A DNA stretch of 20,990 bases. It comes from a virus. Its lineage: Duplodnaviria > Heunggongvirae > Uroviricota > Caudoviricetes. A program made the translations under genes and the position numbers. A model generated the notes under the pieces. The model saw nothing but the letters and a program-made list of their open reading frames with translations, was not told the DNA's origin and ran no database searches. Shown piece after piece: positions 2,856 through 20,990 of the stretch. Every line of letters begins with the position of its first letter. Position 1 is the stretch's first letter. The DNA is taken from IMG/VR virus record IMGVR_UViG_2939121850_000005; one strand, 5' to 3'.

Positions 2856-3074
2856 TCAAAGAGAGAGCGCCACCTGTCCTGATTTAATTGGATGCGGCTG
2901 AACCGGATTTGACTCTTTTGGCGTTGCAATCGAACGAACAAAAGTTTCATGGGTAACAAAAGTATGGCTGCAGTTAATGTTCTGGCACTGGTTGTAACGC
3001 TCTTTGGTCAATGAAGATACCTGAAAACTGCTGCGAGTATGGGCGGCACTTCCACACAGTGGGCAAATCATCAT
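2856..3074 (-). CDS. ogr: Ogr/Delta-family zinc-finger late-gene activator
   Basis: 72 aa from the MMICPLCGS start (P2 Ogr is 72 aa); Cys pairs CPLC...CQNINC; GGGGAG about 10 nt upstream; lies at the prophage end as in P2. Confidence 0.8.
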   Translation of the reverse strand: MMICPLCGSAAHTRSSFQVSSLTKERYNQCQNINCSHTFVTHETFVRSIATPKESNPVQPHPIKSGQVALSL

Positions 3075-3255
3075 TTTTCGAGTTCTCCCCATTTTTGCTA
3101 AATTCACAATAATGATACCGCATTATTCCATTTTGCAAACTTAAAAGTTCTCCATTGCGAAGAATCATTCCATTTCGAAATCATCAATCCTCACTTCAAG
3201 CTCCAGACTGGTCGTAAAACCGTTATCCGGGCTGACGGTATGCGTCAGAGTCGTA

Positions 3256-4734
3256 ATGGTCCATTCCGCATCATCTAACGAAGCTGACTTAAACCCTAAC
3301 GTCGCCAACCGCAACAAAGGCCCGCGCCGTCAGCCGGAAAAGAATGTCTTCACCGATGAACAGATTGAGAAGCTGGAAGAAATCTTCCATTCCTCCATGT
3401 TCAACTACCAGCGCCACTGGTGGGAAGCCGGAAAAACCAACCGCATCCGCAACCTGCTGAAGTCACGCCAGATCGGCGCGACCTTTTACTTTGCCCGTGA
3501 AGCCCTGATTGACGCCCTGCTTACCGGACGTAACCAGATTTTCCTTTCCGCCAGTAAGGCACAGGCCCACGTCTTTAAGCAGTACATCATCGACTTCGCC
3601 AAAGAAGTGGATGTGGAACTGAAAGGCGATCCGATGGTGCTTCCTAACGGGGCCACGCTTTACTTCCTCGGCACCAATGCCCGCACGGCCCAGAGTTATC
3701 ACGGCAACCTGTATCTGGATGAATATTTCTGGATACCGAAATTTCAGGAGCTACGCAAAGTGGCTTCCGGTATGGCTATTCACAAGAAATGGCGGCAGAC
3801 CTATTTTTCCACACCATCCAGCCTGACCCACAGTGCTTATCCGTTCTGGTCCGGTGCGCTGTTCAACCGTGGACGCAACAAAGCCGACAAGGTGGACATT
3901 GATCTGTCCCACAGCAATCTGGCCCCCGGCCTGCTGTGCGCTGACGGGCAATACCGCCAGATAGTCACCGTGGAAGATGCGGTGCGCGGCGGCTGTAACC
4001 TGTTCGACCTTGACCAGTTGCGCATGGAATACAGCCCGGACGAATACCAGAACCTGCTGATGTGCGAGTTTGTGGACGATCTCGCGTCCGTGTTCCCGCT
4101 CAGCGAACTACAGGCGTGCATGGTGGACAGTTGGGAAGTCTGGACCGACTTTCATGCACTGGCGCTGCGCCCGTTTGGCTGGCGCGAAGTGTGGATCGGT
4201 TATGACCCGGCAAAAGGTACGCAGAACGGCGACAGCGCCGGATGCGTGGTGGTGGCACCGCCAGCCGTGCCGGGCGGTAAGTTCCGCATTCTTGAGCGTC
4301 ACCAGTGGCGCGGGATGGACTTCCGCGCCCAGGCTGACGCCATCAAAAAACTGACTGAACAGTACAACGTGACATACATCGGTATCGACTCAACCGGCGT
4401 CGGTCACGGGGTTTACGAGAACGTGAAAGCGTTTTTTCCTGCCGTCCGGGAGTTTGTCTACAACCCCAACGTTAAAAATGCCCTGGTACTCAAGGCCTAC
4501 GACATTATCAGTCACCGCCGTCTGGAGTTTGACGCCGGACACACCGACATAGCGCAGTCATTTATGGCAATTCGTCGCGCCACCACCGCCAGCGGCAACC
4601 GCCCGACCTATGAAGCCAGCCGCAGCGAAGAAGCCAGCCATGCCGATCTGGCGTGGGCAACAATGCACGCACTGTTTAACGAGCCGCTGCAGGGCGAGTC
4701 CGCCAATACCAGCAATATTGTGGAGATTTTTTGA
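3256..4734 (+). CDS. P: Terminase ATPase subunit (P2 gpP family), possibly N-terminally truncated
   Basis: 492-aa ORF; Walker-A-like KSRQIGATF and Walker-B-like LYLDEYFW, then a nuclease-like C-terminal half; about 100 aa shorter than P2 gpP as I recall it; stop overlaps the Q start. Confidence 0.75.
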   Translation: MVHSASSNEADLNPNVANRNKGPRRQPEKNVFTDEQIEKLEEIFHSSMFNYQRHWWEAGKTNRIRNLLKSRQIGATFYFAREALIDALLTGRNQIFLSASKAQAHVFKQYIIDFAKEVDVELKGDPMVLPNGATLYFLGTNARTAQSYHGNLYLDEYFWIPKFQELRKVASGMAIHKKWRQTYFSTPSSLTHSAYPFWSGALFNRGRNKADKVDIDLSHSNLAPGLLCADGQYRQIVTVEDAVRGGCNLFDLDQLRMEYSPDEYQNLLMCEFVDDLASVFPLSELQACMVDSWEVWTDFHALALRPFGWREVWIGYDPAKGTQNGDSAGCVVVAPPAVPGGKFRILERHQWRGMDFRAQADAIKKLTEQYNVTYIGIDSTGVGHGVYENVKAFFPAVREFVYNPNVKNALVLKAYDIISHRRLEFDAGHTDIAQSFMAIRRATTASGNRPTYEASRSEEASHADLAWATMHALFNEPLQGESANTSNIVEIF

Positions 4735-5762
4735 TGGGAAAGAGTAAGAAGAACCGCGCTGTGTCGACGAACCAGATTCAGCATAAAAGCCAGACTTCAG
4801 CCGAAGCATTCAGCTTTGGCGATCCCGTTCCTGTTCTGGACCGCCGCGAACTGCTGGACTATGTGGAATGCGTACAGACAGATCGCTGGTATGAGCCGCC
4901 AGTGAGTTTTGACGGACTGGCGCGAACCTTCCGCGCTGCCGTGCATCACAGTTCACCAATTGCGGTGAAATGCAACATTCTGACCAGTACCTACATCCCT
5001 CACCCGCTTCTCAGCCAGCAGGCTTTTTCACGTTTTGTGCAGGACTATCTGGTATTTGGTAACGCTTACCTGGAGAAACGCACGAACCGGTTCGGTGAAG
5101 TTATCGCCCTTGAGCCTGCTCTGGCAAAATACACCCGACGTGGGTTAGACCTGGATACCTACTGGTTTGTGCAATACGGTATGACAACCCAGCCGTATCA
5201 GTTCACGAAAGGCAGCATCTTTCATCTGATGGAACCGGATATCAACCAGGAGATCTACGGCCTGCCCGGTTATCTTTCTGCTATTCCGTCAGCCCTGCTC
5301 AACGAGTCCGCCACGTTGTTCCGCCGTAAGTATTACATTAACGGCAGCCATGCAGGCTTCATCATGTATATGACCGATGCCGCGCAAAACCAAGAGGATG
5401 TGAACAACCTCCGCAACGCGATGAAAAGCGCCAAAGGTCCGGGCAACTTCCGCAACCTGTTTATGTACTCGCCTAACGGCAAAAAGGACGGGCTTCAGAT
5501 TATCCCGTTGTCAGAGGTCGCAGCGAAGGATGAGTTTTTGAATATCAAGAACGTGAGCCGGGACGACATGATGGCGGCACACCGCGTGCCGCCGCAAATG
5601 ATGGGGATAATGCCGAATAATGTTGGGGGTTTTGGGGATGTGGAAAAGGCTAGTAAAGTCTTTGTCCGAAATGAATTAATTCCGTTACAAAAAAGGCTTA
5701 TAGAAATTAATACTTGGCTAAATGAAAAAATCATAGCATTTAATGATTACTCATTAAATTAG
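4734..5762 (+). CDS. Q: Portal protein (P2 gpQ family), 3' end recoded by AT-rich DNA
   Basis: ATG at 4734 overlaps the P stop (TGATG) with GGAGA upstream; 342 aa; base composition falls from about 53% to 27% GC near 5640 within the last 40 codons. Confidence 0.75.
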   Translation: MGKSKKNRAVSTNQIQHKSQTSAEAFSFGDPVPVLDRRELLDYVECVQTDRWYEPPVSFDGLARTFRAAVHHSSPIAVKCNILTSTYIPHPLLSQQAFSRFVQDYLVFGNAYLEKRTNRFGEVIALEPALAKYTRRGLDLDTYWFVQYGMTTQPYQFTKGSIFHLMEPDINQEIYGLPGYLSAIPSALLNESATLFRRKYYINGSHAGFIMYMTDAAQNQEDVNNLRNAMKSAKGPGNFRNLFMYSPNGKKDGLQIIPLSEVAAKDEFLNIKNVSRDDMMAAHRVPPQMMGIMPNNVGGFGDVEKASKVFVRNELIPLQKRLIEINTWLNEKIIAFNDYSLN

Positions 5763-5792: not shown

Positions 5793-7445
5793 TCACAAAA
5801 ATCGCCTTACACGCATTTTATTAATCGCAGATTCATCTCCAATTCTTATCAAGGCATCCCTTGCCTTTTTCCCTATACGATTCATTCTATCAGAACCATT
5901 ACTAAAATTTCCGAATTTAAGCGCCGTAGCTATTATTGAATCACCACCATCAAGAATGACATTTTTAAATAATTGATAGTAGTCATCTACTGAAGCAGCA
6001 TCCAATATTTCCTCATGTCTATCAGACCAACCATTCTGACCTGATAATTTCTTAAGAACATCATATATTGAACCATCAATATTTATAATCTTAGAATAGG
6101 CTTGAATTTTTGACAACAACTCAGTATCTCTTACGGGATGAACATTCACATAAATAGATTGAACATATTCCTTTAGAGCATCGTTACCATAATTAATAAA
6201 CTGTTCAATCAATTCACTCGCCTTAGCATTCTCTCCGAAATCCCTATATAGTCCGACAACATTATCTAAATCACTTGGAGTCACATATTTCATCCCATCA
6301 ACCACCGCTTGATATAGCTTGTCAACAACCTGATTTTGATTGTCATCAAATGAATTATGAAAGAACTGCCATGCCTCAGATAAGGATCCTCGTTTATTAT
6401 CACGCGTAATCTCCTCATTCCTTAGGCTTATTTGTCTTTGGAAACTGCTCTTATCAAGATAGCCATATCTAACCATATCAATAAGAACCTCATCAAGATC
6501 ATTCGTTTTTCTATATCCATATTTAAGCAAGGTATTAAGCCAGACTTTCTCATGGCCTTCTTCCTTGTCATTATAAGTATATATATTCCTCACTCCCCTA
6601 ATATATTCTAGTGATGGCACATCTCCCTCTGGAGAAAATCCGTAATGGCTCCAACAATACAGAGTTAATGAATGCGCAACTTCATTTGAAATTGTCTCAA
6701 CATCACCTATAATATTTGGTGTTAAGGACACGAAAAAACGTTCTATCTTTTTTAAGATTCGAATATTCTTGATACCTAAAGAAATGGAATATTTACTTAA
6801 CAAGTTATAAACATGAGAATCACCTTTATAGGCTATATCTGCGCATTCTTCTGGTGTTGGATTGTAAGTGATATCTCTATCAATGACCTTTTCTTTATAA
6901 GTAGAATAATCCTCCATACTAGCTGTGCCATTGTTAAGCAATAGAACCACCTTACAATCCTTCTGCTCTTTTAATAGAGATACTAGCCCTAAAACATCTT
7001 TAACATCTAAATTTTTGCCACGCCTTTCTAAGTCATCTATTACTACAATCATTTTAGAAACGGTCAGAAATGACATTGCTTCAAGTGTCGTAGAGAAGTT
7101 TTTTACAACAGGAACTTCTTTTAACAAACCTGCTGCTTTTCGAGAAAATGATTCAAAAAGTCCACTTGCGTTTGTTGTTGCTGTCTCCAAATCAGGTTTA
7201 TTTCCAATATATTCCTTTGTAATTGCATTCTCAAAAATAGAATACTTTAAAGAATCTAGTGAATTTATACCAAAAAGAGAGACATAACTATATCTATTAA
7301 ATGCAACCTTATCTTTATTATCTTTTAGGAACGTATTCCAAGTATAGGTTTTACCAATTCCCCATTCACCCTGTATAGCCATTACTTCTGGTTCTGTAGA
7401 TGAGATAAAATCTGACAACTGTTCTTTGATAAACTCTAAGGACAT
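5793..7445 (-). CDS. KAP-family P-loop NTPase (candidate defence cargo)
   Basis: 551 aa from the ATG at 7445 (GGAGAA upstream; the six-frame track extends it to 7637); Walker A GEWGIGKT (nt 7347..7370) and KAP-type VVIDDLERR motif; about 33% GC. Confidence 0.7.
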   Translation of the reverse strand: MSLEFIKEQLSDFISSTEPEVMAIQGEWGIGKTYTWNTFLKDNKDKVAFNRYSYVSLFGINSLDSLKYSIFENAITKEYIGNKPDLETATTNASGLFESFSRKAAGLLKEVPVVKNFSTTLEAMSFLTVSKMIVVIDDLERRGKNLDVKDVLGLVSLLKEQKDCKVVLLLNNGTASMEDYSTYKEKVIDRDITYNPTPEECADIAYKGDSHVYNLLSKYSISLGIKNIRILKKIERFFVSLTPNIIGDVETISNEVAHSLTLYCWSHYGFSPEGDVPSLEYIRGVRNIYTYNDKEEGHEKVWLNTLLKYGYRKTNDLDEVLIDMVRYGYLDKSSFQRQISLRNEEITRDNKRGSLSEAWQFFHNSFDDNQNQVVDKLYQAVVDGMKYVTPSDLDNVVGLYRDFGENAKASELIEQFINYGNDALKEYVQSIYVNVHPVRDTELLSKIQAYSKIINIDGSIYDVLKKLSGQNGWSDRHEEILDAASVDDYYQLFKNVILDGGDSIIATALKFGNFSNGSDRMNRIGKKARDALIRIGDESAINKMRVRRFL

Positions 7446-7573
7446 GTGTTTTCTCCTAGAAAGATAGCCCCGTATTATAACCCTAGAATTATAAAAGTAA
7501 TGAGCGCGCGCTCGTATCCCCGCCACGCCTGCCCGCTTTATGTAGTGTTTTTCATGCACCTGCATGACATAGG

Positions 7574-7599
7574 CAAAAGCCCGCCAGTTATGACGGGCC
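7574..7599 (-). terminator. Intrinsic terminator downstream of the 883-aa gene
   Basis: Stem gcccg / cgggc with a 10-nt loop at 7579..7598, followed on the minus strand by CTTTTG. Confidence 0.45.
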
Positions 7600-7735
7600 T
7601 CAGCATAAAAGATCCCTAAACGATCATGCGTTTTCATGCAGCATAGTTATGCAGGACTATCTATACATCGACAATCTCAGCTTGACCTCATCAGTCGACA
7701 TCAATCTATATGTCGAGTAACTTGACAGGAACCAT

Positions 7736-10387
7736 TCATTGATCCACAAGAGATAAACTAATCTTTTGCTCAACAGCGTTGAAATCGTTCTCTATACGCA
7801 CCCATAGTACTTTACCTTTGGAATACTCATTCATACGGTTAAAACCTGCAGGCAGTTTTGATTTATGTATTAACCCTGTAATTTTTCCTGTAAAGTTAAC
7901 AAAAACACCATATCTATGATCGCAATTCCGTACAGTACCTTCTAATATATCACCTGACTGATACCTAGCTTCGAACTCTGCCCATTCAGGATCGCGTATC
8001 TTTTCCGCAAATGACTTAACAGCATCAATTGCAGGTTGGATATCAGTTAGCCCGTGATATTCATCTCCAGAAATAAATTCGCCTGAAAAACTTGCTATCG
8101 TTTCACGTTGATTTACAAGAAAATCAACTAACTCCTTAGCATTAGCACTAACCATTTCTTTATTATACTGATTTTGAACTGACCCCATCCTTTCAGAGAC
8201 TCTTCTGGCAATTTGCTCAGTAGGGAAAAGAGTATCTTCTGCTAACGCGGCTAGATAGCTAATATTTGAGAGCATATCCAAATGCACAAACCCAGCCGAG
8301 GATAATCTTAGTAAGTCTTCATCAGTTATTCCAGTCTCTCTAAAATCCTCTGAAACTAAACATTGCCCCTGAAGTAAATAATCGACCTCACGAGTTATAA
8401 CCTTTGGAGAAAAACCAAACTTGACTAATCCGTTTTTTAACGCAAACAAAGGAAAGTATCCTTTAAGTCCAGTTGGACCACTTACCCCAAAATTATTATA
8501 GAACCATTTCAAAATTGCAAACCTAGTAAAATGATTAGCCCTCTCATCATCTTTTTCCGTCGAAAATATATTTTTAAGGTATGAGTTATCGCTATCATAA
8601 AATCGACGATTTAATCGTAATAACACTCTGGTCACAATATGTAAAGGAAGCGCATAGCGTCCTTCACTTTGCCTTATTTTTAAAAACTCACCTTCAGTAA
8701 TATGCCCACTAGTGCAGAACTCCAAGAAAATTTCCAAAGCCCTTCGTATATTTCTTCCTGAAAGACCAACAATCATCCTTCTTATTTGTGCATCATGTAC
8801 AAAAATAGAGTTTGCGATTGATGTTAAATAATATGAACGTTCGTCCTTGCTATATTCAACATTAAAGCCGTTAGGAAGTGAATATGAAAGAGTATTGCTA
8901 GCACTAGTTTTTGTCATTTCTTTAAGAACAAGCTGCACTCTTGAATGAAGAACATAATTAAACAACGGTGGTTCAATACGGAAAACCATATCTTTTAAAG
9001 CGGTGTCAAGAGGAGGACGATCTCTATAATTATCATAAGTTTCTTCTCTCAAGGGAAGAATTATTAGTGATCTAAACTCATTTTGGAGCCATTGAGCAGC
9101 CTGAAACATTAGCAACTGTTCAGACAAAGTTCTTTTATCACAATTATCAAGAACTATTACAACTAATTTACCGCGCTCTGTCCCACAATACCGAGTATAG
9201 GCAAGTGCAGTTTCATGTAAATCTGACTTACATTCCCTAATAATTTTAAACAATTCCTTATTATATTCATCCCCAGAAAGTAATTGCCCCTCCCCCTTAT
9301 TAAACTTATTTATCTCAACAGAATAGAGTTTTTTTAAATTATCCAACAAATCAAAATCAATATCTGGGTAAGCTAACTTACATTGTTGAATTATTTTCCC
9401 TCTAAGCCAATCATAAACTTCCCCTGAAGAAACCGGGGATTCATTCATATTAAAACGTAACCAAAGAGTGGTTTTAATAATATCATTTGGGAGCGCGACT
9501 TCTTTTAAATGATCAATGAAAGTTGTTTTTCCTGAACCAACACTGCCAACAATCAATAAAATTTTATTTTCAAGCGGAGATCGCCCTCTAAATTTTTCAA
9601 TTATTTCTTTGGGATTATCAGTATCTTCAATTAATTTAGAATCACTATTGCTTACTGGTTGAGCAGCCCTGATAATTTTATCTATTGGCTGGGTATAGCG
9701 GTCCCTGCGCTTAGATGAAATATACCCTTCACGAGCGATAAACTGTCGATCATTCAGTGTATTTGGATTAAATATATTTCCATACTCTGATATAAGTGTT
9801 GCACCAAAACTATTATGCCCCACCTCTTCGTTCTGAGCTGCCTTCCCTCCCATCATTCTCCTAGGCTTCCAGAATTTTCTAGGTTTTGATTTAGCTATGA
9901 ATTCCTCAGATAATTTCGAGAGAGCTGTAAACGAAAATTCCTCTAAAAAATTTGCACAATTTTTATCAACAGGTGATATCTCATTTAATCGGTAACTACC
10001 CTGGTTATTATCCCATTCCCCCGCAAGCCACTCATATCCATCAGTAGCTATGATTTTGGTAAGAGGATTCATACCACTCTCATATTTTGCATTCAACTCT
10101 AGCGCATATAATCGTGCTTCCTGAAAAGCGCTATCTAAATCCTCTCCAGGAGTTTTTGCTTCTACTAGTAATACAGGAACACCATTTATAATTACAAGAT
10201 AGTCTGGATAATATATTTTTTTGGTACTACCTTTACCTATCTCTAAGCTTTTAATATTTCTTTTAGTGAGTATATACTCTTTATTTATGCCAAGCCCATC
10301 AACAGATTTCTTAGTCAGAAACGGATAAATTATTTTTTGTTCGATATCACTTTCTGTTTCCTTTACTTTATTTATCTTACTACTCAT
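7736..10387 (-). CDS. Multidomain protein: restriction-endonuclease-like PD-(D/E)xK motif, P-loop NTPase and C-terminal S1/OB domain (candidate defence cargo)
   Basis: 883 aa; YPDYLVIINGVPVLLVEAK (aa 60-78); Walker A GSVGSGKTT (nt 9521..9547); Walker B VVIVLDNCD (aa 409-417); S1-like signature GDILEGTVRNCDHRYGVFVNFTGKITGLIHKSKL...GKVLWVRIEN in the last 75 aa; AAGGA RBS; about 33% GC. Confidence 0.75.
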   Translation of the reverse strand: MSSKINKVKETESDIEQKIIYPFLTKKSVDGLGINKEYILTKRNIKSLEIGKGSTKKIYYPDYLVIINGVPVLLVEAKTPGEDLDSAFQEARLYALELNAKYESGMNPLTKIIATDGYEWLAGEWDNNQGSYRLNEISPVDKNCANFLEEFSFTALSKLSEEFIAKSKPRKFWKPRRMMGGKAAQNEEVGHNSFGATLISEYGNIFNPNTLNDRQFIAREGYISSKRRDRYTQPIDKIIRAAQPVSNSDSKLIEDTDNPKEIIEKFRGRSPLENKILLIVGSVGSGKTTFIDHLKEVALPNDIIKTTLWLRFNMNESPVSSGEVYDWLRGKIIQQCKLAYPDIDFDLLDNLKKLYSVEINKFNKGEGQLLSGDEYNKELFKIIRECKSDLHETALAYTRYCGTERGKLVVIVLDNCDKRTLSEQLLMFQAAQWLQNEFRSLIILPLREETYDNYRDRPPLDTALKDMVFRIEPPLFNYVLHSRVQLVLKEMTKTSASNTLSYSLPNGFNVEYSKDERSYYLTSIANSIFVHDAQIRRMIVGLSGRNIRRALEIFLEFCTSGHITEGEFLKIRQSEGRYALPLHIVTRVLLRLNRRFYDSDNSYLKNIFSTEKDDERANHFTRFAILKWFYNNFGVSGPTGLKGYFPLFALKNGLVKFGFSPKVITREVDYLLQGQCLVSEDFRETGITDEDLLRLSSAGFVHLDMLSNISYLAALAEDTLFPTEQIARRVSERMGSVQNQYNKEMVSANAKELVDFLVNQRETIASFSGEFISGDEYHGLTDIQPAIDAVKSFAEKIRDPEWAEFEARYQSGDILEGTVRNCDHRYGVFVNFTGKITGLIHKSKLPAGFNRMNEYSKGKVLWVRIENDFNAVEQKISLSLVDQ

Positions 10388-11133: not shown

Positions 11134-11149
11134 CTGTTTATATAAACAG
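11134..11149. promoter_or_regulatory. LexA (SOS) box CTGTTTATATAAACAG
   Basis: Perfect palindromic CTGT-N8-ACAG about 50 nt upstream of the small ORF on the minus strand; TATAAT directly adjacent on the plus strand; a weaker CTGTATATAC half-box lies at 11119. Confidence 0.5.
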
Positions 11150-15778: not shown

Positions 15779-16288
15779 TCACAGCAAACCGAATGAAGCA
15801 CCAAGGCCAGTCATGGTATCAACTGCACTCGCCATCGCAGGATTAGCCTGTAAACGGGCTTGCAATGAAACAGCAGCCAGCGCCATCAGTCGTGTTACAG
15901 AGTTAATGCTGCTGATAGCATCACGACGACCTGCACTGGTTTTTACATCGCCAGATACCGCACCTGCAGCAACACGCCCGATCTCTGCGGTTGCACTCAT
16001 GACGTAATGCGGTAGTTTCTCTTTTGCCACCTCATTAATCGGAACACATGGCAGACAATGAATCTGTGCCAGAAAACCATCTACCAGCGTTGAATCTTCA
16101 GTCAGATCGGTAAGCAACCAAATTTCTGGTGCGGTTAATAAATGAGGTTGAGCTGGGTTCAGTTTGTTCCGCAGAATCTGCACATTCATGCCTGCACGTT
16201 CTGCCAGTTGCACCAGATTGTGGCGCAGTGCGAATGCACGACAGGCTTCATCAAAATGTGGATGTTTGGAAACTTGGTAATCAAACAT
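15779..16288 (-). CDS. CII-like HTH transcriptional regulator (186 CII-like by position and size)
   Basis: 169 aa from MFDYQ with GAGGTG RBS; HTH-like [16 protein letters not shown]; directly downstream of the Apl/Cox-like gene. Confidence 0.55.
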
Positions 16289-16320
16289 GGTCGACACCTC
16301 TGATGTATCCCAAAATGGAA

Positions 16321-16542
16321 CTAGTTGAATACAACATTGCAATCAGTAAGTGCATCAACGGTAAGAGCAGCAAGGTTGATCATTACCTTTTCTCTTTTCT
16401 TGTCTTTCCGAAGGCGATGCCGAGGGATGCGACCGTCAGCCAGCATATCGTTAATTGTGTCGATTGAAAGACCAGTAAGTTCGCTATAACGCTCAATTGT
16501 GACATGTGGCGTATTCAGGGTTATTGAAATGTTAGGGGTCAT
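16321..16542 (-). CDS. Apl/Cox-like excisionase-type small DNA-binding regulator
   Basis: 73 aa; HTH-like [26 protein letters not shown]; first gene of the lytic-direction operon, divergent from the CI-like gene; AGGAG upstream. Confidence 0.5.
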
Positions 16543-16630
16543 GATGCAACATCTCCTATTGGCTTGTGGTGAGTCAGTTTTAATCGTGGCTTTAACTTCA
16601 CATTTCGGAGAATAGGATCACAAATCGGTT
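16543..16630. promoter_or_regulatory. Immunity switch region (divergent promoter/operator space)
   Basis: 88-bp gap between the divergent Apl-like and CI-like genes; contains 7-bp inverted repeats TCCTATT / AATAGGA about 50 bp apart. Confidence 0.4.
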
Positions 16631-17566
16631 ATGTCAACACATGAAATCACATTTCGCCATGTGGACGAAAAAAAGAAATCCTTAATCATGCAGAATCGCG
16701 GAGGGCAATCGGTTATAGATCGGATACTGAAAGCCTATGGTTTTTCTTCCCGACAAGCATTCTGTAATCACCTAGGTATATCGCAAAGTACAATGGCGAA
16801 CAGGTATGCCCGTGACACTTTCCCTGCTGATTGGGTTGTTATCTGTAGCATGGAGACTGGAGTGCCGGTCGAGTGGTTGGCATTTGGCACTGATACCGAG
16901 AAGGGAAGCATTACAAATAATGCAGAAAAAAGTCACAACAATTGTGACAGCAAGCATCAACATCTCAATAGAGAACAAGACATCCAAAATGAGAACTCTT
17001 TTACTATTAACCAAGGTGGAAAAGCAGCAATAGAGCGAATCGTTTTGGCTTATGGATTTAAGACAAGACAAGCTTTAGCTGATCATATTGGTGTATCAAA
17101 AAGTACATTAGCCAATCGTTACATGAGAGATACCTTTCCTGCTGACTGGATTATTCAATGCTCACTGGAAACCGGTGCTTCATTAACATGGCTAACCACT
17201 GGTAACGGGGCAATGTTTGAAAAGCCTCGAAACGATACTATCACTATCCCATATCATAAAATAATTGATGGATCTCTTGCTCAAGAAACCTTCTTGACTT
17301 TTGACTCTAAGTTGTTAGAAGGAACCTTTCTGCAACCTTTAGCAGTATTCATTGATGAGGAAATATATATTGTAGAATCAAAATTTAATGAAGTTACTGA
17401 TGGCAAGTGGCTTGTGAATATTGAAGGGAAAATAAGTATCAAAGATTTGACTCGCATACCCGTTGGTATGGTTAAAGTTGTAGGCACTAACGCAAGTTTT
17501 GAATGCTTACTTACTGACATTATCGTTTTGGCAAAATGTAAAAGAGTTTTTACTAAAAATGTATAA
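16631..17566 (+). CDS. CI-like repressor with tandemly duplicated HTH domain (186 CI-type)
   Basis: 311 aa; two about 64-aa repeats (aa 24-87 and 129-192, about 60% identical) each with an HTH-like core (ILKAYGFSSRQAFCNHLGISQSTMANRY / IVLAYGFKTRQALADHIGVSKSTLANRY); about 37% GC; start codon uncertain (no clear SD). Confidence 0.6.
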   Translation: MSTHEITFRHVDEKKKSLIMQNRGGQSVIDRILKAYGFSSRQAFCNHLGISQSTMANRYARDTFPADWVVICSMETGVPVEWLAFGTDTEKGSITNNAEKSHNNCDSKHQHLNREQDIQNENSFTINQGGKAAIERIVLAYGFKTRQALADHIGVSKSTLANRYMRDTFPADWIIQCSLETGASLTWLTTGNGAMFEKPRNDTITIPYHKIIDGSLAQETFLTFDSKLLEGTFLQPLAVFIDEEIYIVESKFNEVTDGKWLVNIEGKISIKDLTRIPVGMVKVVGTNASFECLLTDIIVLAKCKRVFTKNV

Positions 17567-17577
17567 AGAGAAACATC

Positions 17578-18522
17578 ATGACTGAACCAACCAATAAAGA
17601 TAGCGAAATAAAAAAACACCTATTAGAATTTCTTGATTCACAGTCTGAAAATATAGCAAAACACTTCTACTCTCATATAAAAGACTTAATAGAAGCAGGA
17701 GAGCTTTCTGAAGCTCATAATAACCTAGCGCTAATTGAAAAATACATAACTAGGCCACCGATGGATGAAGAACCCAATATAAATGAAAATAAAGCCAATA
17801 AAAGAAAAAATGTAAAATCACTTGAACCTAATAATTATGTAGAACATATAATACAATTAGAAGAACGAAACAGCATATTAACTCTACAGTTAGAGCATTA
17901 TACTCAGGATCTTAATAGAAAAAACGCAATAATCGAAAACAACGTAAAACAAATTAATTCATTGATTAGTGAAAATAAGGAACTCCGTAGCCAAGTACAG
18001 CAACAAAGAATCGATGATAAAATCCCCACCTATGTTAACGATGTTAAATCAGATCTTGGTAGTGATGACAAACATTTTATATTGATGTCTATTATCTGGT
18101 CTATTGCAGGGGTATTTTTTGGCTTCCTTGCAGTAGTATCTGCTTTTTTTACATTATACATGAACTTAGATTTAAAAAATCTCACTAACCTTCAGTTAAT
18201 ATATATCTTCACGCGAGGATTAGTTGGAATCGCCATTCTTTCATGGCTATCATATATCTGCCTTAGTAACTCAAAAAAGTACACACATGAATCGATCAGG
18301 CGAAAAGATCGTCGACATGCTTTGATGTTTGGTCAAGTTTTTTTGCAGATATACGGTTCTACAGCAACTAAAGAGGATGCAATAGAAGTCTTTAAGGATT
18401 GGAATATTTCAGGTGACTCTGCATTTTCAGGTCAGACAGAGCAACCACCGAGTTTTGCGTCATTTTTGAATACAATCAAAGACAAAGTTAAAGTAACTGG
18501 AAGTGATAAAGAAACAGATTAA
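17578..18522 (+). CDS. Coiled-coil / two-TM membrane protein of unknown function (candidate exclusion or abortive-infection moron)
   Basis: 314 aa starting 11 nt after the CI-like stop; charged coiled-coil N-terminal half and two hydrophobic helices (FILMSIIWSIAGVFFGFLAVVSAFF, GLVGIAILSWLSYICL); strongly AT-rich. Confidence 0.6.
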   Translation: MTEPTNKDSEIKKHLLEFLDSQSENIAKHFYSHIKDLIEAGELSEAHNNLALIEKYITRPPMDEEPNINENKANKRKNVKSLEPNNYVEHIIQLEERNSILTLQLEHYTQDLNRKNAIIENNVKQINSLISENKELRSQVQQQRIDDKIPTYVNDVKSDLGSDDKHFILMSIIWSIAGVFFGFLAVVSAFFTLYMNLDLKNLTNLQLIYIFTRGLVGIAILSWLSYICLSNSKKYTHESIRRKDRRHALMFGQVFLQIYGSTATKEDAIEVFKDWNISGDSAFSGQTEQPPSFASFLNTIKDKVKVTGSDKETD

Positions 18523-18567
18523 TCATGAACATGTATGCTACTAAGTAAAAAATACATTGAATACTGT

Positions 18568-18575
18568 TGTTATAT
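18568..18575. repeat. 8-bp target-site duplication TGTTATAT (left copy)
   Basis: Identical octamer immediately flanks both IS ends. Confidence 0.6.
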
Positions 18576-19891
18576 GGGTCTTCCCTTGTTGTGGTGGCTG
18601 AAGGCATGATAATGGTGTATTTAATCGCCAGAGGTCACCGCCATGGACGAAAAGTCCCTCTACGCTCATATTCTCAACCTGTCCGATCCGTGGCAGGTAA
18701 AGTCCCTTTCTCTCGATGAAAATGCCGGTTCTGTTACTGTCACTATTGAGATCGCTGAAAACACCCGGCTAGCCTGTCCGACCTGCGGTAAATCCTGTTC
18801 TGTTCACGATCACCGTCATCGTAAATGGCGCCATCTTGATACCTGCCAGTTCACCACTATTGTTGAAGCCGATGTTCCACGAATTATGTGTCCGGAGCAT
18901 GGCTGCCTGACGTTGCCTGTTCCGTGGGCTGGCCCCGGAAGCCGGTATACGTTGCTATTCGAATCGTTCGTTCTCTCATGGCTGAAAATCAGCACCGTTG
19001 ATGCTGTCAGGAAGCAACTTAAGCTCAGTTGGAATGCGGTTGACGGCATTATGACCCGGGCAGTTAAGCGAGGTCTTGCCCGGATAAAAAAGCCATTATC
19101 CGCCCGTCATATGAATGTGGATGAGGTCGCCTTTAAAAAAGGACATCGTTACATAACGGTGATCTCCGATCGCGATGGTCGGGCGCTGGCCTTAACGGAT
19201 GATCGCGGCACAGAGAGTCTTGCCGGCTATCTTCGCACGCTCACTGATGGGCAGTTGCTGGCTATCAAAACGCTCTCAATGGACATGAACGCGGGCTATA
19301 TAAGAGCAGCGCGTATCTACTTACCCAGTGCGGTTGAGAAAATCGCCTTTGACCGCTTCCATGTGGCGAAGCAACTGGGCGAGGTAGTTGATAAAACCCG
19401 TCAGAATGAACATCCGCACCTCCCTGTTGAAAGCCGACACCAGGCAAAAGGAACCCGCTTCCTGTGGCAGTACAGCGATAAGTGGATGACCGAATCCCGG
19501 CAGGAAAAGCTGATGTGGCTGCGTGCACAGATGAAGCTGACGAGCCAGTGCTGGGCGCTGAAAGAGCTGGCAAAGGATATCTGGAACAGGCCATGGAGCG
19601 AGGAAAGACGGAGTGACTGGCAGAGATGGTTGGCGCTGGCGGCTAACAGTGACGTTCCCATGATGAAAAATGCCGCGAAAACGATAGGAAAAAGGCTGTA
19701 CGGGATCCTGAATGCGATGCGACACAGTGTCTCAAACGGAAATGCGGAGGCACTTAACAGCAAGATCAGGCTGCTGAGGATAAAAGCCAGGGGATACCGA
19801 AACCGGGAGCGCTTTAAACTGGGGGTGATGTTCCACTACGGAAAGCTGAATATGGCGTTCTGAGCCTTCCCACCATGATCGGGGAAGACCC
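18576..19891 (+). mobile_element. ISL3-family insertion sequence (1316 bp)
   Basis: Imperfect terminal inverted repeats beginning GGGTCTTCCC at both ends (left 18576..18604; right 19864..19891, reverse complement); one transposase ORF; flanked by an 8-bp direct repeat. Confidence 0.75.
18643..19863 (+). CDS. ISL3-family transposase
   Basis: 406 aa; N-terminal Cys/His zinc-finger (CPTCGKSC...CPEHGC), DDE-type core, C-terminal SNGNAEALNSKIRLLRIKARGYRNRERF typical of ISL3 transposases; GAGGT RBS. Confidence 0.75.
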   Translation: MDEKSLYAHILNLSDPWQVKSLSLDENAGSVTVTIEIAENTRLACPTCGKSCSVHDHRHRKWRHLDTCQFTTIVEADVPRIMCPEHGCLTLPVPWAGPGSRYTLLFESFVLSWLKISTVDAVRKQLKLSWNAVDGIMTRAVKRGLARIKKPLSARHMNVDEVAFKKGHRYITVISDRDGRALALTDDRGTESLAGYLRTLTDGQLLAIKTLSMDMNAGYIRAARIYLPSAVEKIAFDRFHVAKQLGEVVDKTRQNEHPHLPVESRHQAKGTRFLWQYSDKWMTESRQEKLMWLRAQMKLTSQCWALKELAKDIWNRPWSEERRSDWQRWLALAANSDVPMMKNAAKTIGKRLYGILNAMRHSVSNGNAEALNSKIRLLRIKARGYRNRERFKLGVMFHYGKLNMAF

Positions 19892-19899
19892 TGTTATAT
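19892..19899. repeat. 8-bp target-site duplication TGTTATAT (right copy)
   Basis: Identical to 18568..18575, directly abutting the right IS end. Confidence 0.6.
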
Positions 19900-19937
19900 A
19901 CAGTTAAATTTAGCCCTCTGATATGAGGGCATTTTTT

Positions 19938-20990
19938 ATGGCAGTACGAAAACTCACCACAGGAAAATGGCTTTGCGAATGTTACCCCGCCGGACGTAGC
20001 GGACGCCGTGTGCGTAAACAATTCGCCACCAAAGGCGAAGCACTGGCCTTCGAGCGATACACCATGGGGGAAATAGAAGCAAAACCCTGGCTGGGCGAAT
20101 CAGTGGATCGTCGGACACTGAAAGATATGGTTGAGCTATGGTTCAAATTACATGGCAAATCTCTTACTGCCGGACAGCATGTCTACAACAAGCTGCTGTT
20201 GATGGTTGACGCCTTGGGAAATCCCCTTGCAACTGATCTCACCTCAAAAATGTTTGCTCACTATCGAGATAAACGCCTGACAGGCGAGATCTACTTCAGC
20301 GAGAAATGGAAGAAAGGAGCAAGCCCGGTCACCATTAACCTGGAGCAAAGCTATCTAAGTAGTGTTTTTAGCGAACTATCCCGTCTGGGCGAATGGTCGT
20401 ATCCGAACCCACTGGAGAACATGCGAAAATTCACCATCGCAGAAAAAGAGATGGCATGGCTTACCCATGAGCAGATTGTTGAATTGCTGGCTGATTGCAA
20501 ACGTCAGGACCCAATTCTGGCACTGGTAGTTAAGATATGCTTAAGCACAGGCGCACGCTGGCGTGAAGCCGTAAATCTTACCCGCTCACAGGTGACCAAA
20601 TACCGAATTACCTTTGTCAGAACGAAGGGGAAGAAAAACAGAAGCATCCCTATCAGTAAAGAGCTTTACGAAGAGATCATGGCGCTCGATGGGTTCAATT
20701 TCTTCACAGACTGCTATTTTCAATTTTTATCCGTGATGGAAAAAACGTCTATCGTGCTCCCTCGCGGTCAACTCACACACGTTCTGCGCCATACGTTTGC
20801 AGCGCACTTCATGATGTCGGGTGGAAACATTCTGGCCTTACAAAAAATTCTCGGACACCACGATATAAAAATGACTATGCGTTACGCACATCTGGCACCG
20901 GATCATCTGGAAACGGCGCTCCGTTTCAATCCTCTGGCAACGCTGCCAAGTGGCGACAAAGTGGCGGCAGCGGTTGGCATTACCCCGTAA
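19938..20990 (+). CDS. int: Tyrosine integrase (P2 Int family)
   Basis: 350 aa from MAVRKLTTGKW (second in-frame ATG, GAGGG upstream); catalytic region with R...HxxR...Y (ARWREA, HVLRHTFA, RYAHL); stop is the last codon of the window. Confidence 0.85.
   Translation: MAVRKLTTGKWLCECYPAGRSGRRVRKQFATKGEALAFERYTMGEIEAKPWLGESVDRRTLKDMVELWFKLHGKSLTAGQHVYNKLLLMVDALGNPLATDLTSKMFAHYRDKRLTGEIYFSEKWKKGASPVTINLEQSYLSSVFSELSRLGEWSYPNPLENMRKFTIAEKEMAWLTHEQIVELLADCKRQDPILALVVKICLSTGARWREAVNLTRSQVTKYRITFVRTKGKKNRSIPISKELYEEIMALDGFNFFTDCYFQFLSVMEKTSIVLPRGQLTHVLRHTFAAHFMMSGGNILALQKILGHHDIKMTMRYAHLAPDHLETALRFNPLATLPSGDKVAAAVGITP

Follow-up and report, generated by a model that had tools for sequence, protein, structure and literature searches.

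The 20,990-nucleotide stretch of DNA in IMG/VR record IMGVR_UViG_2939121850_000005 (hereafter the window, at its full length) contains a decayed P2/186-type prophage in which a gene of 314 codons (17578..18522, + strand, ATG start) directly follows the phage repressor gene cI. Its product, a predicted inner-membrane protein, is listed by RefSeq as a hypothetical protein (WP_001678408; family phrog_2628). We found that this open reading frame (ORF) stands in the 186 family where rexAB stands in lambda, at the head of a slot between cI and the integrase gene int in which relatives carry defense genes, and that its conserved C-terminal part recurs behind TIR and EAD11 domains in distant bacteria. 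The reading that we favor, and hold to be probable though far from assured, is that the 314-aa protein would be a lysogen-expressed sensor and membrane effector in a single polypeptide, giving abortive infection or exclusion.

Position in the lysogenic operon and the cI-int slot

The cI gene (16631..17566, + strand; RefSeq 'phage repressor protein CI', with the RefSeq start at 16688) opens the lysogenic transcription unit. Its product is a 186-type CI with a duplicated helix-turn-helix (HTH) domain, as indicated by tandem Pfam matches to Phage_CI_repr (aa 24-86 and 132-196) followed by Phage_CI_C (E 4e-58 and 2e-26). Among relatives, CI is either a single-domain protein of ~190 aa or a double-domain protein of ~311 aa, and the CI of phage 186 has one DNA-binding domain. 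The cI gene ends in a TAA at 17566, and the ORF begins 11 nt downstream; as read from the sequence, the spacer (17567..17577, + strand) has AAGAGAAACATC before the ATG and lacks a terminator, and no terminator-like sites were found on the + strand across positions 16300-18700. A sequence-only reading of this DNA had described an AT-rich 314-aa ORF lying 11 nt past the stop of a CI-like repressor gene with no terminator in between, and the ORF map, the terminator scan, the Pfam matches, and the base composition agree with it on each point, the G+C content of the ORF being 0.30-0.35 (33% overall) as compared to 0.43-0.54 in most other prophage DNA.

On the map of phage 186, the lysogenic operon transcribed from pL consists of cI, int, and orf69, and the cI stop abuts the int start. 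We compared 51 loci encoding relatives of the ORF (8 genome loci and 43 viral contigs), and in 48 of these apl and cII read one way and cI, the ORF, and int, in that order, read the other. This arrangement persists despite identities of 40-66% for CI and 38-63% for the ORF product, and prophages of full size (32-38 kb) show it too. In relatives, 9-30 nt typically separate cI from the ORF; in E. coli 08-00022, which has an intact allele (NZ_CP013662 902808-904642), the ORF starts after an 11-nt gap behind cI and is itself separated from int by a 91-nt spacer. In the related loci, the G+C content of the ORF (0.30-0.36) lies below that of cI (0.38-0.46) and int (0.46-0.54). Because of this difference, and because it is inserted between two genes that adjoin in 186, the ORF appears to be acquired cargo inside the lysogenic unit. 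The suggestion of the sequence-only reading that the gene lies in a rexAB-like position right after the repressor thus holds, insertion after cI being found in 48 of the 51 loci, and we conclude that this position is the 186-family equivalent of that of rexAB.

The ORF was found by megablast in 115 of 5426 complete E. coli genomes and was chromosomal every time. An intact ORF, identical or >95% identical, is present in 114 E. coli genomes, and a more sensitive search identified diverged alleles in 38 additional E. coli genomes; the uropathogen CFT073 has an allele (WP_000377448.1) in the same gene arrangement. The protein is a full-length member of phrog_2628 (positions 1-314 of 314; E 3.8e-215, 713.8 bits), but that family has no function annotation and membership therefore explains nothing. 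Because a tblastn search of 50,697 deposited phage genomes gave no match to the 314-aa protein, phrog_2628 must stem from prophage-derived entries. Klebsiella 'phage' records sharing the CI stop exactly at the CI stop codon.

Some relatives have extra AT-rich genes in the slot, always after the ORF homologue. Between the homologue and int, one locus (L047) encodes PD-T7-4 (E 8e-76), four (L007, L041, L044, and L049) encode PDC-S20, which comprises KAP-family NTPases (down to E 3e-164), and another (L046) encodes PDC-M11A/B (E 2e-131 and 1e-48); in L006, the same place is taken by a bPH plus SHOCT protein recognized by Pfam domains only. Because relatives carry PD-T7-4, PDC-S20, and PDC-M11 ahead of int, the cI-int slot is, as judged from these sequence matches, a defense slot. 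A defense hotspot between cI and int has been described in K139-like P2-related phages (Rousset 2022, PMC9122126), and a 2026 survey found that 8% of P2 defense systems sit between integrase and primase (PMC13586616). In Klebsiella phage 4LV2017 (L060, 5776-7432), the post-cI slot holds an unrelated 349-aa protein without a family match and then a 201-aa multi-transmembrane protein, which looks like another uncharacterized pair of a soluble and a membrane protein in a repressor operon.

Protein architecture and the C-terminal module

Hydropathy analysis revealed two hydrophobic transmembrane (TM) helices (~aa 167-195 and 205-229) separated by a loop of ~9 residues, as the sequence-only reading had stated. 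Because seven K/R residues fall within the 20 residues after TM2, both termini are predicted to be cytoplasmic (N-in/C-in). An AlphaFold model of the full protein (110 homologues, mean pLDDT 74.6) consists of a three-helix N-domain (aa 7-58), a low-confidence linker (59-78), an unbroken helix that runs from a coiled coil into TM1 (79-194), a helix in which TM2 extends into the cytoplasm (204-259), and two more helices.

The N-terminal domain (17596..17751, + strand; modeled helices 7-21, 28-39, and 43-58) was found by jackhmmer in 90 close relatives and in 0 remote ones, and is thus confined to an Enterobacterales prophage clade. The coiled-coil stalk (aa 79-138; 17812..17991, + strand) is part of the single modeled helix 79-194 (pLDDT >90) and is supported by one heptad register in which 63% of a/d positions are hydrophobic as compared to 33% overall. 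The N-terminal half had earlier been taken for one long charged coiled coil; the coiled coil stands, but it is preceded by the three-helix domain and the linker. The conserved module starts with a juxtamembrane helix (aa 139-166; 17992..18075, + strand; VQQxRIDxKIPxYVxxVKxxLxxDDxxF), which aligns with remote relatives and has six invariant residues (Q142, I145, D146, Y152, V153, and D164). It continues through the TM hairpin (18076..18264, + strand), made up by hydropathy of TM1 (aa 167-195), a periplasmic loop (196-204), and TM2 (205-229). Within TM2, the close family shows no variation at R213 and G214, and K/R occupies the R213 position in 144 of 231 remote members (62%). The cytoplasmic segment that follows (aa 230-292; 18265..18453, + strand) bears the superfamily signature, E238-x5-D244-R245-x-H247-A248-[IL]-x-F251-G252 ... 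W275-N276 ... F283. The C-terminal tail had been described as short; in fact it is 85 residues long and is the most conserved part of the protein. Modeled alone, the module reached pLDDT 87.5 and pTM 0.72.

Within the Enterobacterales family, the first 125 residues vary freely and aa 139-292 are nearly invariant. The gene is under constraint: nonsynonymous divergence (dN) is ~0.25 in the module as compared to ~1.0 in the N-terminal part (4-5x lower). These are relative dN values, as synonymous sites were saturated in nearly all pairs, which makes dN/dS unusable, and the sole close pair had too few changes (N-domain ratio 1.04, 78 codons). Because the N-terminal head evolves fast relative to the module, it is the likeliest specificity determinant, and we propose it as the sensing or specificity part of the protein. 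An internal start at the nearly invariant M170, which would give a short form like SieB or Esc, was considered and dropped, as no Shine-Dalgarno-like sequence was seen upstream.

To find the module outside the close family, we compared 1.84 billion cluster representatives with a profile of aa 125-314, which matched 464 proteins at E<=1e-3 (286 at E<=1e-10) across phyla. The module is C-terminal in all of these matches, with a median of one residue after it and 0-245 aa before it, and the N-terminal parts form several unrelated clusters. Among 123 remote relatives, Pfam recognized an N-terminal TIR_2 domain in 24, TIR in 11, EAD11 in 8, MgtE_N-like repeats in 6, and ThsB_TIR in 3. A profile of the remote module retrieved 249 proteins from a second database, and most of the best 120 were TIR fusions of ~312 aa; sources of the fusions include Pseudomonas, Undibacterium, Paenibacillus, Psychrobacillus, Niallia, and metagenomes. 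The close and remote module profiles align with an hhalign probability of 100% (E 1.3e-47, 179 columns). Each of ten residues (E238, D244, R245, H247, A248, F251, G252, W275, N276, and F283) is conserved in at least 219 of 231 remote members, and the window protein carries every residue of the resulting signature, E-x5-[DE]R-x-HA-[IL]-x-FG ... WN ... F. As judged from profile and signature, the 314-aa protein is a member of an unnamed superfamily defined by this C-terminal 2-TM module and linked to TIR and EAD11.

We also inspected the neighborhoods of ten remote members. One from Paenibacillus sp. adjoins genes for Shedu SduA_C, Mrr_cat, and an NB-ARC protein, and the P. kribbensis member adjoins an OLD-like TOPRIM ATPase and HEPN_RiboL-PSP. 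The Grimontia marina member lies beside CTD1/MComp1/SMC_N genes, which we take to be an ABC-three-component, Lamassu-type set. Another remote member adjoins SymE and HicB, the Niallia member is at a prophage end past holin and amidase, and the Psychrobacillus member is between two integrases. Effector-associated domains (EADs) have been described as adaptors that tether effector or signaling domains to the cores of conflict systems (PMC7159879). Because the module recurs behind TIR and EAD11, in defense islands, and in a prophage defense slot, it is most simply read as a conflict-system component.

Searches of Pfam, NCBIfam, and PADLOC assigned no significant family to the 314-aa protein. Sub-threshold matches to DUF996, DUF2207_C, and LeoC were rejected as compositional noise from TM and coiled-coil segments; the LeoC match (E 0.011) covers the coiled coil and TM1 only and no GTPase gene is adjacent, so that the dynamin-like Eleos/Leo system was set aside as well. 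SLATT profiles from Pfam gave no match to the protein at E<=0.1 and none to 16 module sequences at E<=10, and SieB (PF14163) matched one of the 16 without significance (E 0.14). DUF6161 was rejected as a relative, being found in one of 123 remote members below threshold (E 8.5e-4), and the PADLOC matches of remote relatives to PDC-S66, LeoBC, and TIR-TM belong to their TIR or coiled-coil parts rather than to the module. Single-sequence and profile searches of solved structures yielded nothing meaningful, and fold matches to SLATT proteins were non-significant (E 0.16-0.44). Literature searches on the accession, on TIR-TM proteins, and on repressor-adjacent exclusion genes found no description of this family.

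The prophage remnant and the ORF-int spacer

The window is identical to a segment of the E. coli WCHEC020031 chromosome, and the decayed prophage that occupies it is flanked by ybjM and ybjL on one side and by rcdA on the integrase side. The remnant reads ogr, fragments of D and of a terminase gene, the portal gene, a two-gene AT-rich island, replication gene A, dam, several small early genes, fil, cII, an apl-like gene, cI, the 314-aa ORF, the insertion sequence (IS) ISKox3, and int. After ogr, a 132-bp fragment of late gene D is joined to a terminase gene truncated at its 5' end, and the portal gene comes next (2856-5762); the capsid, tail, and lysis genes are thus deleted. More than 100 complete E. 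coli genomes carry this remnant in nearly identical form. Its IS insertion and loss of late genes make it a fixed prophage remnant that still holds cI, the 314-aa ORF, and an A-Q island.

The switch region of the window agrees in its Apl/cII/cI layout with the annotated 186 map. An Apl/Cox-like gene (16321..16542, - strand), recognized by a weak HTH_17 match, is the first gene of the divergent lytic operon and fixes the orientation of the switch; it is followed by cII (15779-16288; Phage_CP76 match in Pfam), and a promoter-like site lies near it on the - strand (16637->16609). The AT-rich island (5793-10387, - strand; G+C 0.32-0.38) is located in the known P2 defense hotspot, between replication gene A and the portal gene. 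It consists of a gene for a 613-aa P-loop NTPase, with a match to the PADLOC candidate PDC-S49 (E 7e-28), and a gene for an 882-aa protein that RefSeq describes as HsdR N-terminal domain-containing and that has no significant PADLOC match. The sole CTGT-N8-ACAG site of the window (11134-11149) lies just past gene A, upstream of a small ORF (10897-11085/11262, - strand). This is where phage 186 has its LexA-controlled p95-tum antirepressor unit, and the site and the small ORF may be the SOS induction module of this prophage.

Downstream of the 314-aa ORF, the window differs from the intact allele by ISKox3 (ISL3 family; 1325 bp, 18569..19893, + strand), named by RefSeq, with a transposase gene at 18643-19863 (Pfam DDE_Tnp_ISL3) and with bounds set by comparison with a related locus, L002. 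The element is inserted 46 nt past the ORF stop, leaving the ORF and its link to cI untouched and interrupting a conserved region upstream of int. Within that region, a terminator-like hairpin, GCCCTC-tgatat-GAGGGC followed by T6 (19913..19937, + strand; L002 7012-7036), runs right up to the int ATG. In the intact allele, 67 nt lie between the ORF stop and this hairpin, which is conserved in most E. coli-type relatives, with compensating stem changes among them (AGCCCTCA…TGAGGGCT). The hairpin is likely the end of the cI-ORF transcript, although as an alternative it could control translation of int. The int gene itself (19938..20990, + strand) encodes a P2/186-type tyrosine integrase (Pfam Int_N and Phage_integrase; RefSeq).

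About 50 nt upstream of int, there is a LexA-box-like site, CTG[TG]-N8-ACAG (L002 6987-7002), with an equivalent in ~45 related loci. It is the only such site in the 12.9 kb of L002 (0.12 expected by chance), is flanked by a TTGAC[CA]/TTGAAT hexamer and a TTAAAT hexamer, and stays beside int despite extra cargo. In the window, ISKox3 sits inside this site, the halves of which are at 18569 and 19893. The arrangement suggests that int has its own SOS-controlled promoter in this lineage, unlike in 186, where int directly follows cI. Two loci (L018 and L019) carry a 96%-identical allele with an insert of ~1.9 kb and 57% G+C in the ORF-int spacer; in L019 (7044-8531, - strand), the insert encodes a 495-aa protein that resembles, by eye only, a group II intron reverse transcriptase. 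Mobile elements have thus entered the ORF-int spacer twice, independently.

Known systems and alternative explanations

In lambda, rexAB lies downstream of the repressor gene, is co-transcribed with it in the lysogen, includes a membrane component, and is dispensable for phage growth. The 314-aa ORF is like rexAB in lying directly downstream of a repressor gene with no terminator in between, in encoding a predicted membrane component that would be expected to affect membrane integrity, and in its presumed dispensability for phage growth. However, the two are unrelated in sequence, and Rex combines soluble RexA with 4-TM RexB whereas the window encodes one 2-TM polypeptide with a sensor-like cytoplasmic N-terminus; moreover, the gene lies between cI and int of a 186/P2-type prophage, where the next gene is int (in the window, the IS). 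The protein thus resembles RexAB by position and in its predicted logic but is not a member of that system. When the sequence-only reading proposed a membrane effector for exclusion or abortive infection, it did so by this analogy. Circumstantial evidence now speaks for the proposal (defense genes in the slot, a module fused to TIR and EAD11, and defense islands), but homology to RexA or RexB was not found, as a PADLOC scan that included the RexAB models gave only the LeoC match mentioned above and Pfam and NCBIfam gave nothing.

A different likeness is to SLATT and other 2-TM effectors (CBASS Cap14/Cap15, Pycsar PycTM, and type II Thoeris ThsA), in which a two-helix hairpin is likewise joined to conserved cytoplasmic helices; SLATT has been predicted to be a pore-forming effector (PMC7159879). 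Also shared is the association with TIR and conflict systems, although it is seen only across the superfamily (24 of 123 remote relatives with TIR_2 and 11 with TIR). Against this, the module lacks a Pfam SLATT match even at E<=10, its fold matches are non-significant, it is C-terminal with a signature of its own (E-x5-DRxHA-x-FG ... WN), and neither a nucleotide cyclase nor a TIR partner is encoded in the operon of the prophage version.

In E. coli P2-like prophages, the defense hotspots described so far are the A-Q and tail regions. Prophage defense genes between repressor and integrase are also found in mycobacteriophages (for example Sbash gp30/31), where they are lysogen-expressed, include membrane or ion-channel-like members, and act on heterotypic phages. 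Those hosts and sequences are unrelated. In kind, we regard the 314-aa protein as a candidate for the prophage-encoded membrane defense effectors. The K139-like hotspot uses the same repressor-integrase slot of a P2-family prophage and holds variable defense cargo (PMC9122126, PMC13586616), but it was described for Vibrionaceae phages; here, by comparison, a single gene family comes first in the slot in almost every case instead of changing between phages.

Under the reading that we favor, the ORF would be accessory cargo placed right after cI in the lysogenic operon of a 186-type prophage, and, because it is inserted there, every lysogen would make its product alongside the repressor. Anchored in the inner membrane, the protein would expose both termini to the cytoplasm, where its three-helix N-domain would recognize something that an infecting phage makes or perturbs. 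The coiled coil, being one helix with TM1, would pass the signal on or drive oligomerization, and the module, with its juxtamembrane helix, a TM hairpin in which a basic residue is buried, and its cytoplasmic tail, would damage or depolarize the membrane. As the window protein has no enzymatic domain, the module or its oligomer is the likeliest executor. Infection would then abort or the incoming phage would be excluded, and a single polypeptide would correspond in function to RexA and RexB together in lambda.

Several observations weigh against this reading. The window protein has neither an enzymatic nor a known sensor domain; PADLOC has no model for the module, and representative non-TIR members gave zero PADLOC matches; fold searches yielded generic helical hairpins only, the module alone having no specific structural neighbor; and literature naming WP_001678408 was not found. 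Rapid divergence of the N-terminal part equally fits a low-constraint spacer, and the 111 near-identical E. coli copies may mean clonal inheritance rather than selection. The neighborhood survey is likewise divided: 48 of the 51 close loci are prophage-borne and some remote members lie in defense islands, but the three Chimaeribacter homologues are orphan chromosomal genes among housekeeping genes, with host-like G+C and outside any prophage, and four of the ten remote neighborhoods were uninformative. The constant first place after cI might reflect a role in the phage's own lysogeny, and where the module is fused to TIR, it could serve as an anchor or membrane sensor and not as the effector.

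The last two points lead to alternatives that we consider unlikely. If the gene controlled lysogeny instead of serving defense, its product, anchored in the membrane, would adjust repressor activity, integration, or induction, for instance by coupling the state of the envelope to the switch. The ORF is indeed always first after cI even when there is extra cargo, is kept across many CI immunity types of both the single- and double-HTH kind, and lies between cI and an int gene that has a LexA-box-like upstream region of its own. A lysogeny factor, however, is hard to reconcile with its absence from phage 186 and from all deposited phage genomes searched, with the unrelated genes that 4LV2017 holds at that place, with the low G+C that marks the ORF as acquired cargo, or with the occurrence of the module, TIR-fused, in non-phage contexts (Firmicutes, Bacteroidota, and others). 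We are marginally more skeptical of the view that the module is not the killing part at all, so that TIR would be the effector in the fusions and the prophage version would recruit or sequester a partner through its coiled coil; such a protein could still act in defense or could be a decoy or inhibitor. This would fit the description of the TIR domains of Thoeris, CBASS, and Pycsar as signal generators or NADase effectors (PMC9122126), and the polar character and cytoplasmic location of the strictly conserved residues suggest that they bind or gate rather than simply line a pore. On the other hand, EAD11 fusions pair the module with an adaptor alone, which makes the module the cargo, and many members have only helical or coiled-coil N-termini and stand alone, so that the module must function alone.

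Superinfection exclusion by an inner-membrane protein that blocks DNA injection without killing the cell, as with P22 SieA, T4 Imm, and HK97 gp15, is in our estimate about as improbable. A predicted lysogen-expressed inner-membrane protein adjoining the repressor would suit such a role, and the P2-family phage K139 encodes its exclusion protein Glo in the same region. The glo gene has been described as the immunity gene of the K139 family (PMC4870250). Yet the periplasmic part comprises only ~9 residues, the conserved residues are all cytoplasmic, the one SieB match among 16 members was not significant (E 0.14), and fusion of modules to cytoplasmic TIR and EAD11 fits signaling or effector logic better. 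We give least credence to a host-fitness gene (envelope stress tolerance or colonization) or a decaying passenger without current function. The annotation as hypothetical only, the state of the host prophage (a remnant with deleted late genes and an IS beside the gene), and the homologue in uropathogen CFT073 would be compatible with it, but the purifying selection on the module, the synteny conserved in full-size 32-38 kb prophages, the defense genes in the same slot, and the immune domains fused to the module in relatives all point elsewhere.

Beyond the sensor-effector reading of the window protein, we tentatively advance a broader possibility, which we consider rather less probable: that the module is an undescribed, phylum-spanning family of membrane effectors in prokaryotic immunity, apart from SLATT, of which 186-type prophages captured a version with a private head as a one-protein Rex-like device. 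The invariant cytoplasmic E-x5-DRxHA-x-FG ... WN surface would then act as a gate, which in the TIR fusions may answer to a TIR product or to TIR oligomerization, and the Rex-like device would be hard-wired to the repressor gene in ~2-3% of sequenced E. coli, CFT073 included.

If these readings are true, the gene would extend the catalogue of bacterial immunity by a new single-gene defense and a new membrane-effector module, and the module is already present in hundreds of TIR-fused proteins that current tools label merely 'TIR domain protein'. The cI-int junction of Enterobacterales 186-type prophages would be a site of defense cargo beyond the A-Q and tail hotspots. Because the gene is found in clinically important E. 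coli and Klebsiella lineages, it is also relevant to phage therapy. Furthermore, the coupling of phage sensing to membrane damage could be studied in a tractable RexAB analogue that consists of one protein and whose natural alleles vary mainly in the putative sensor head.

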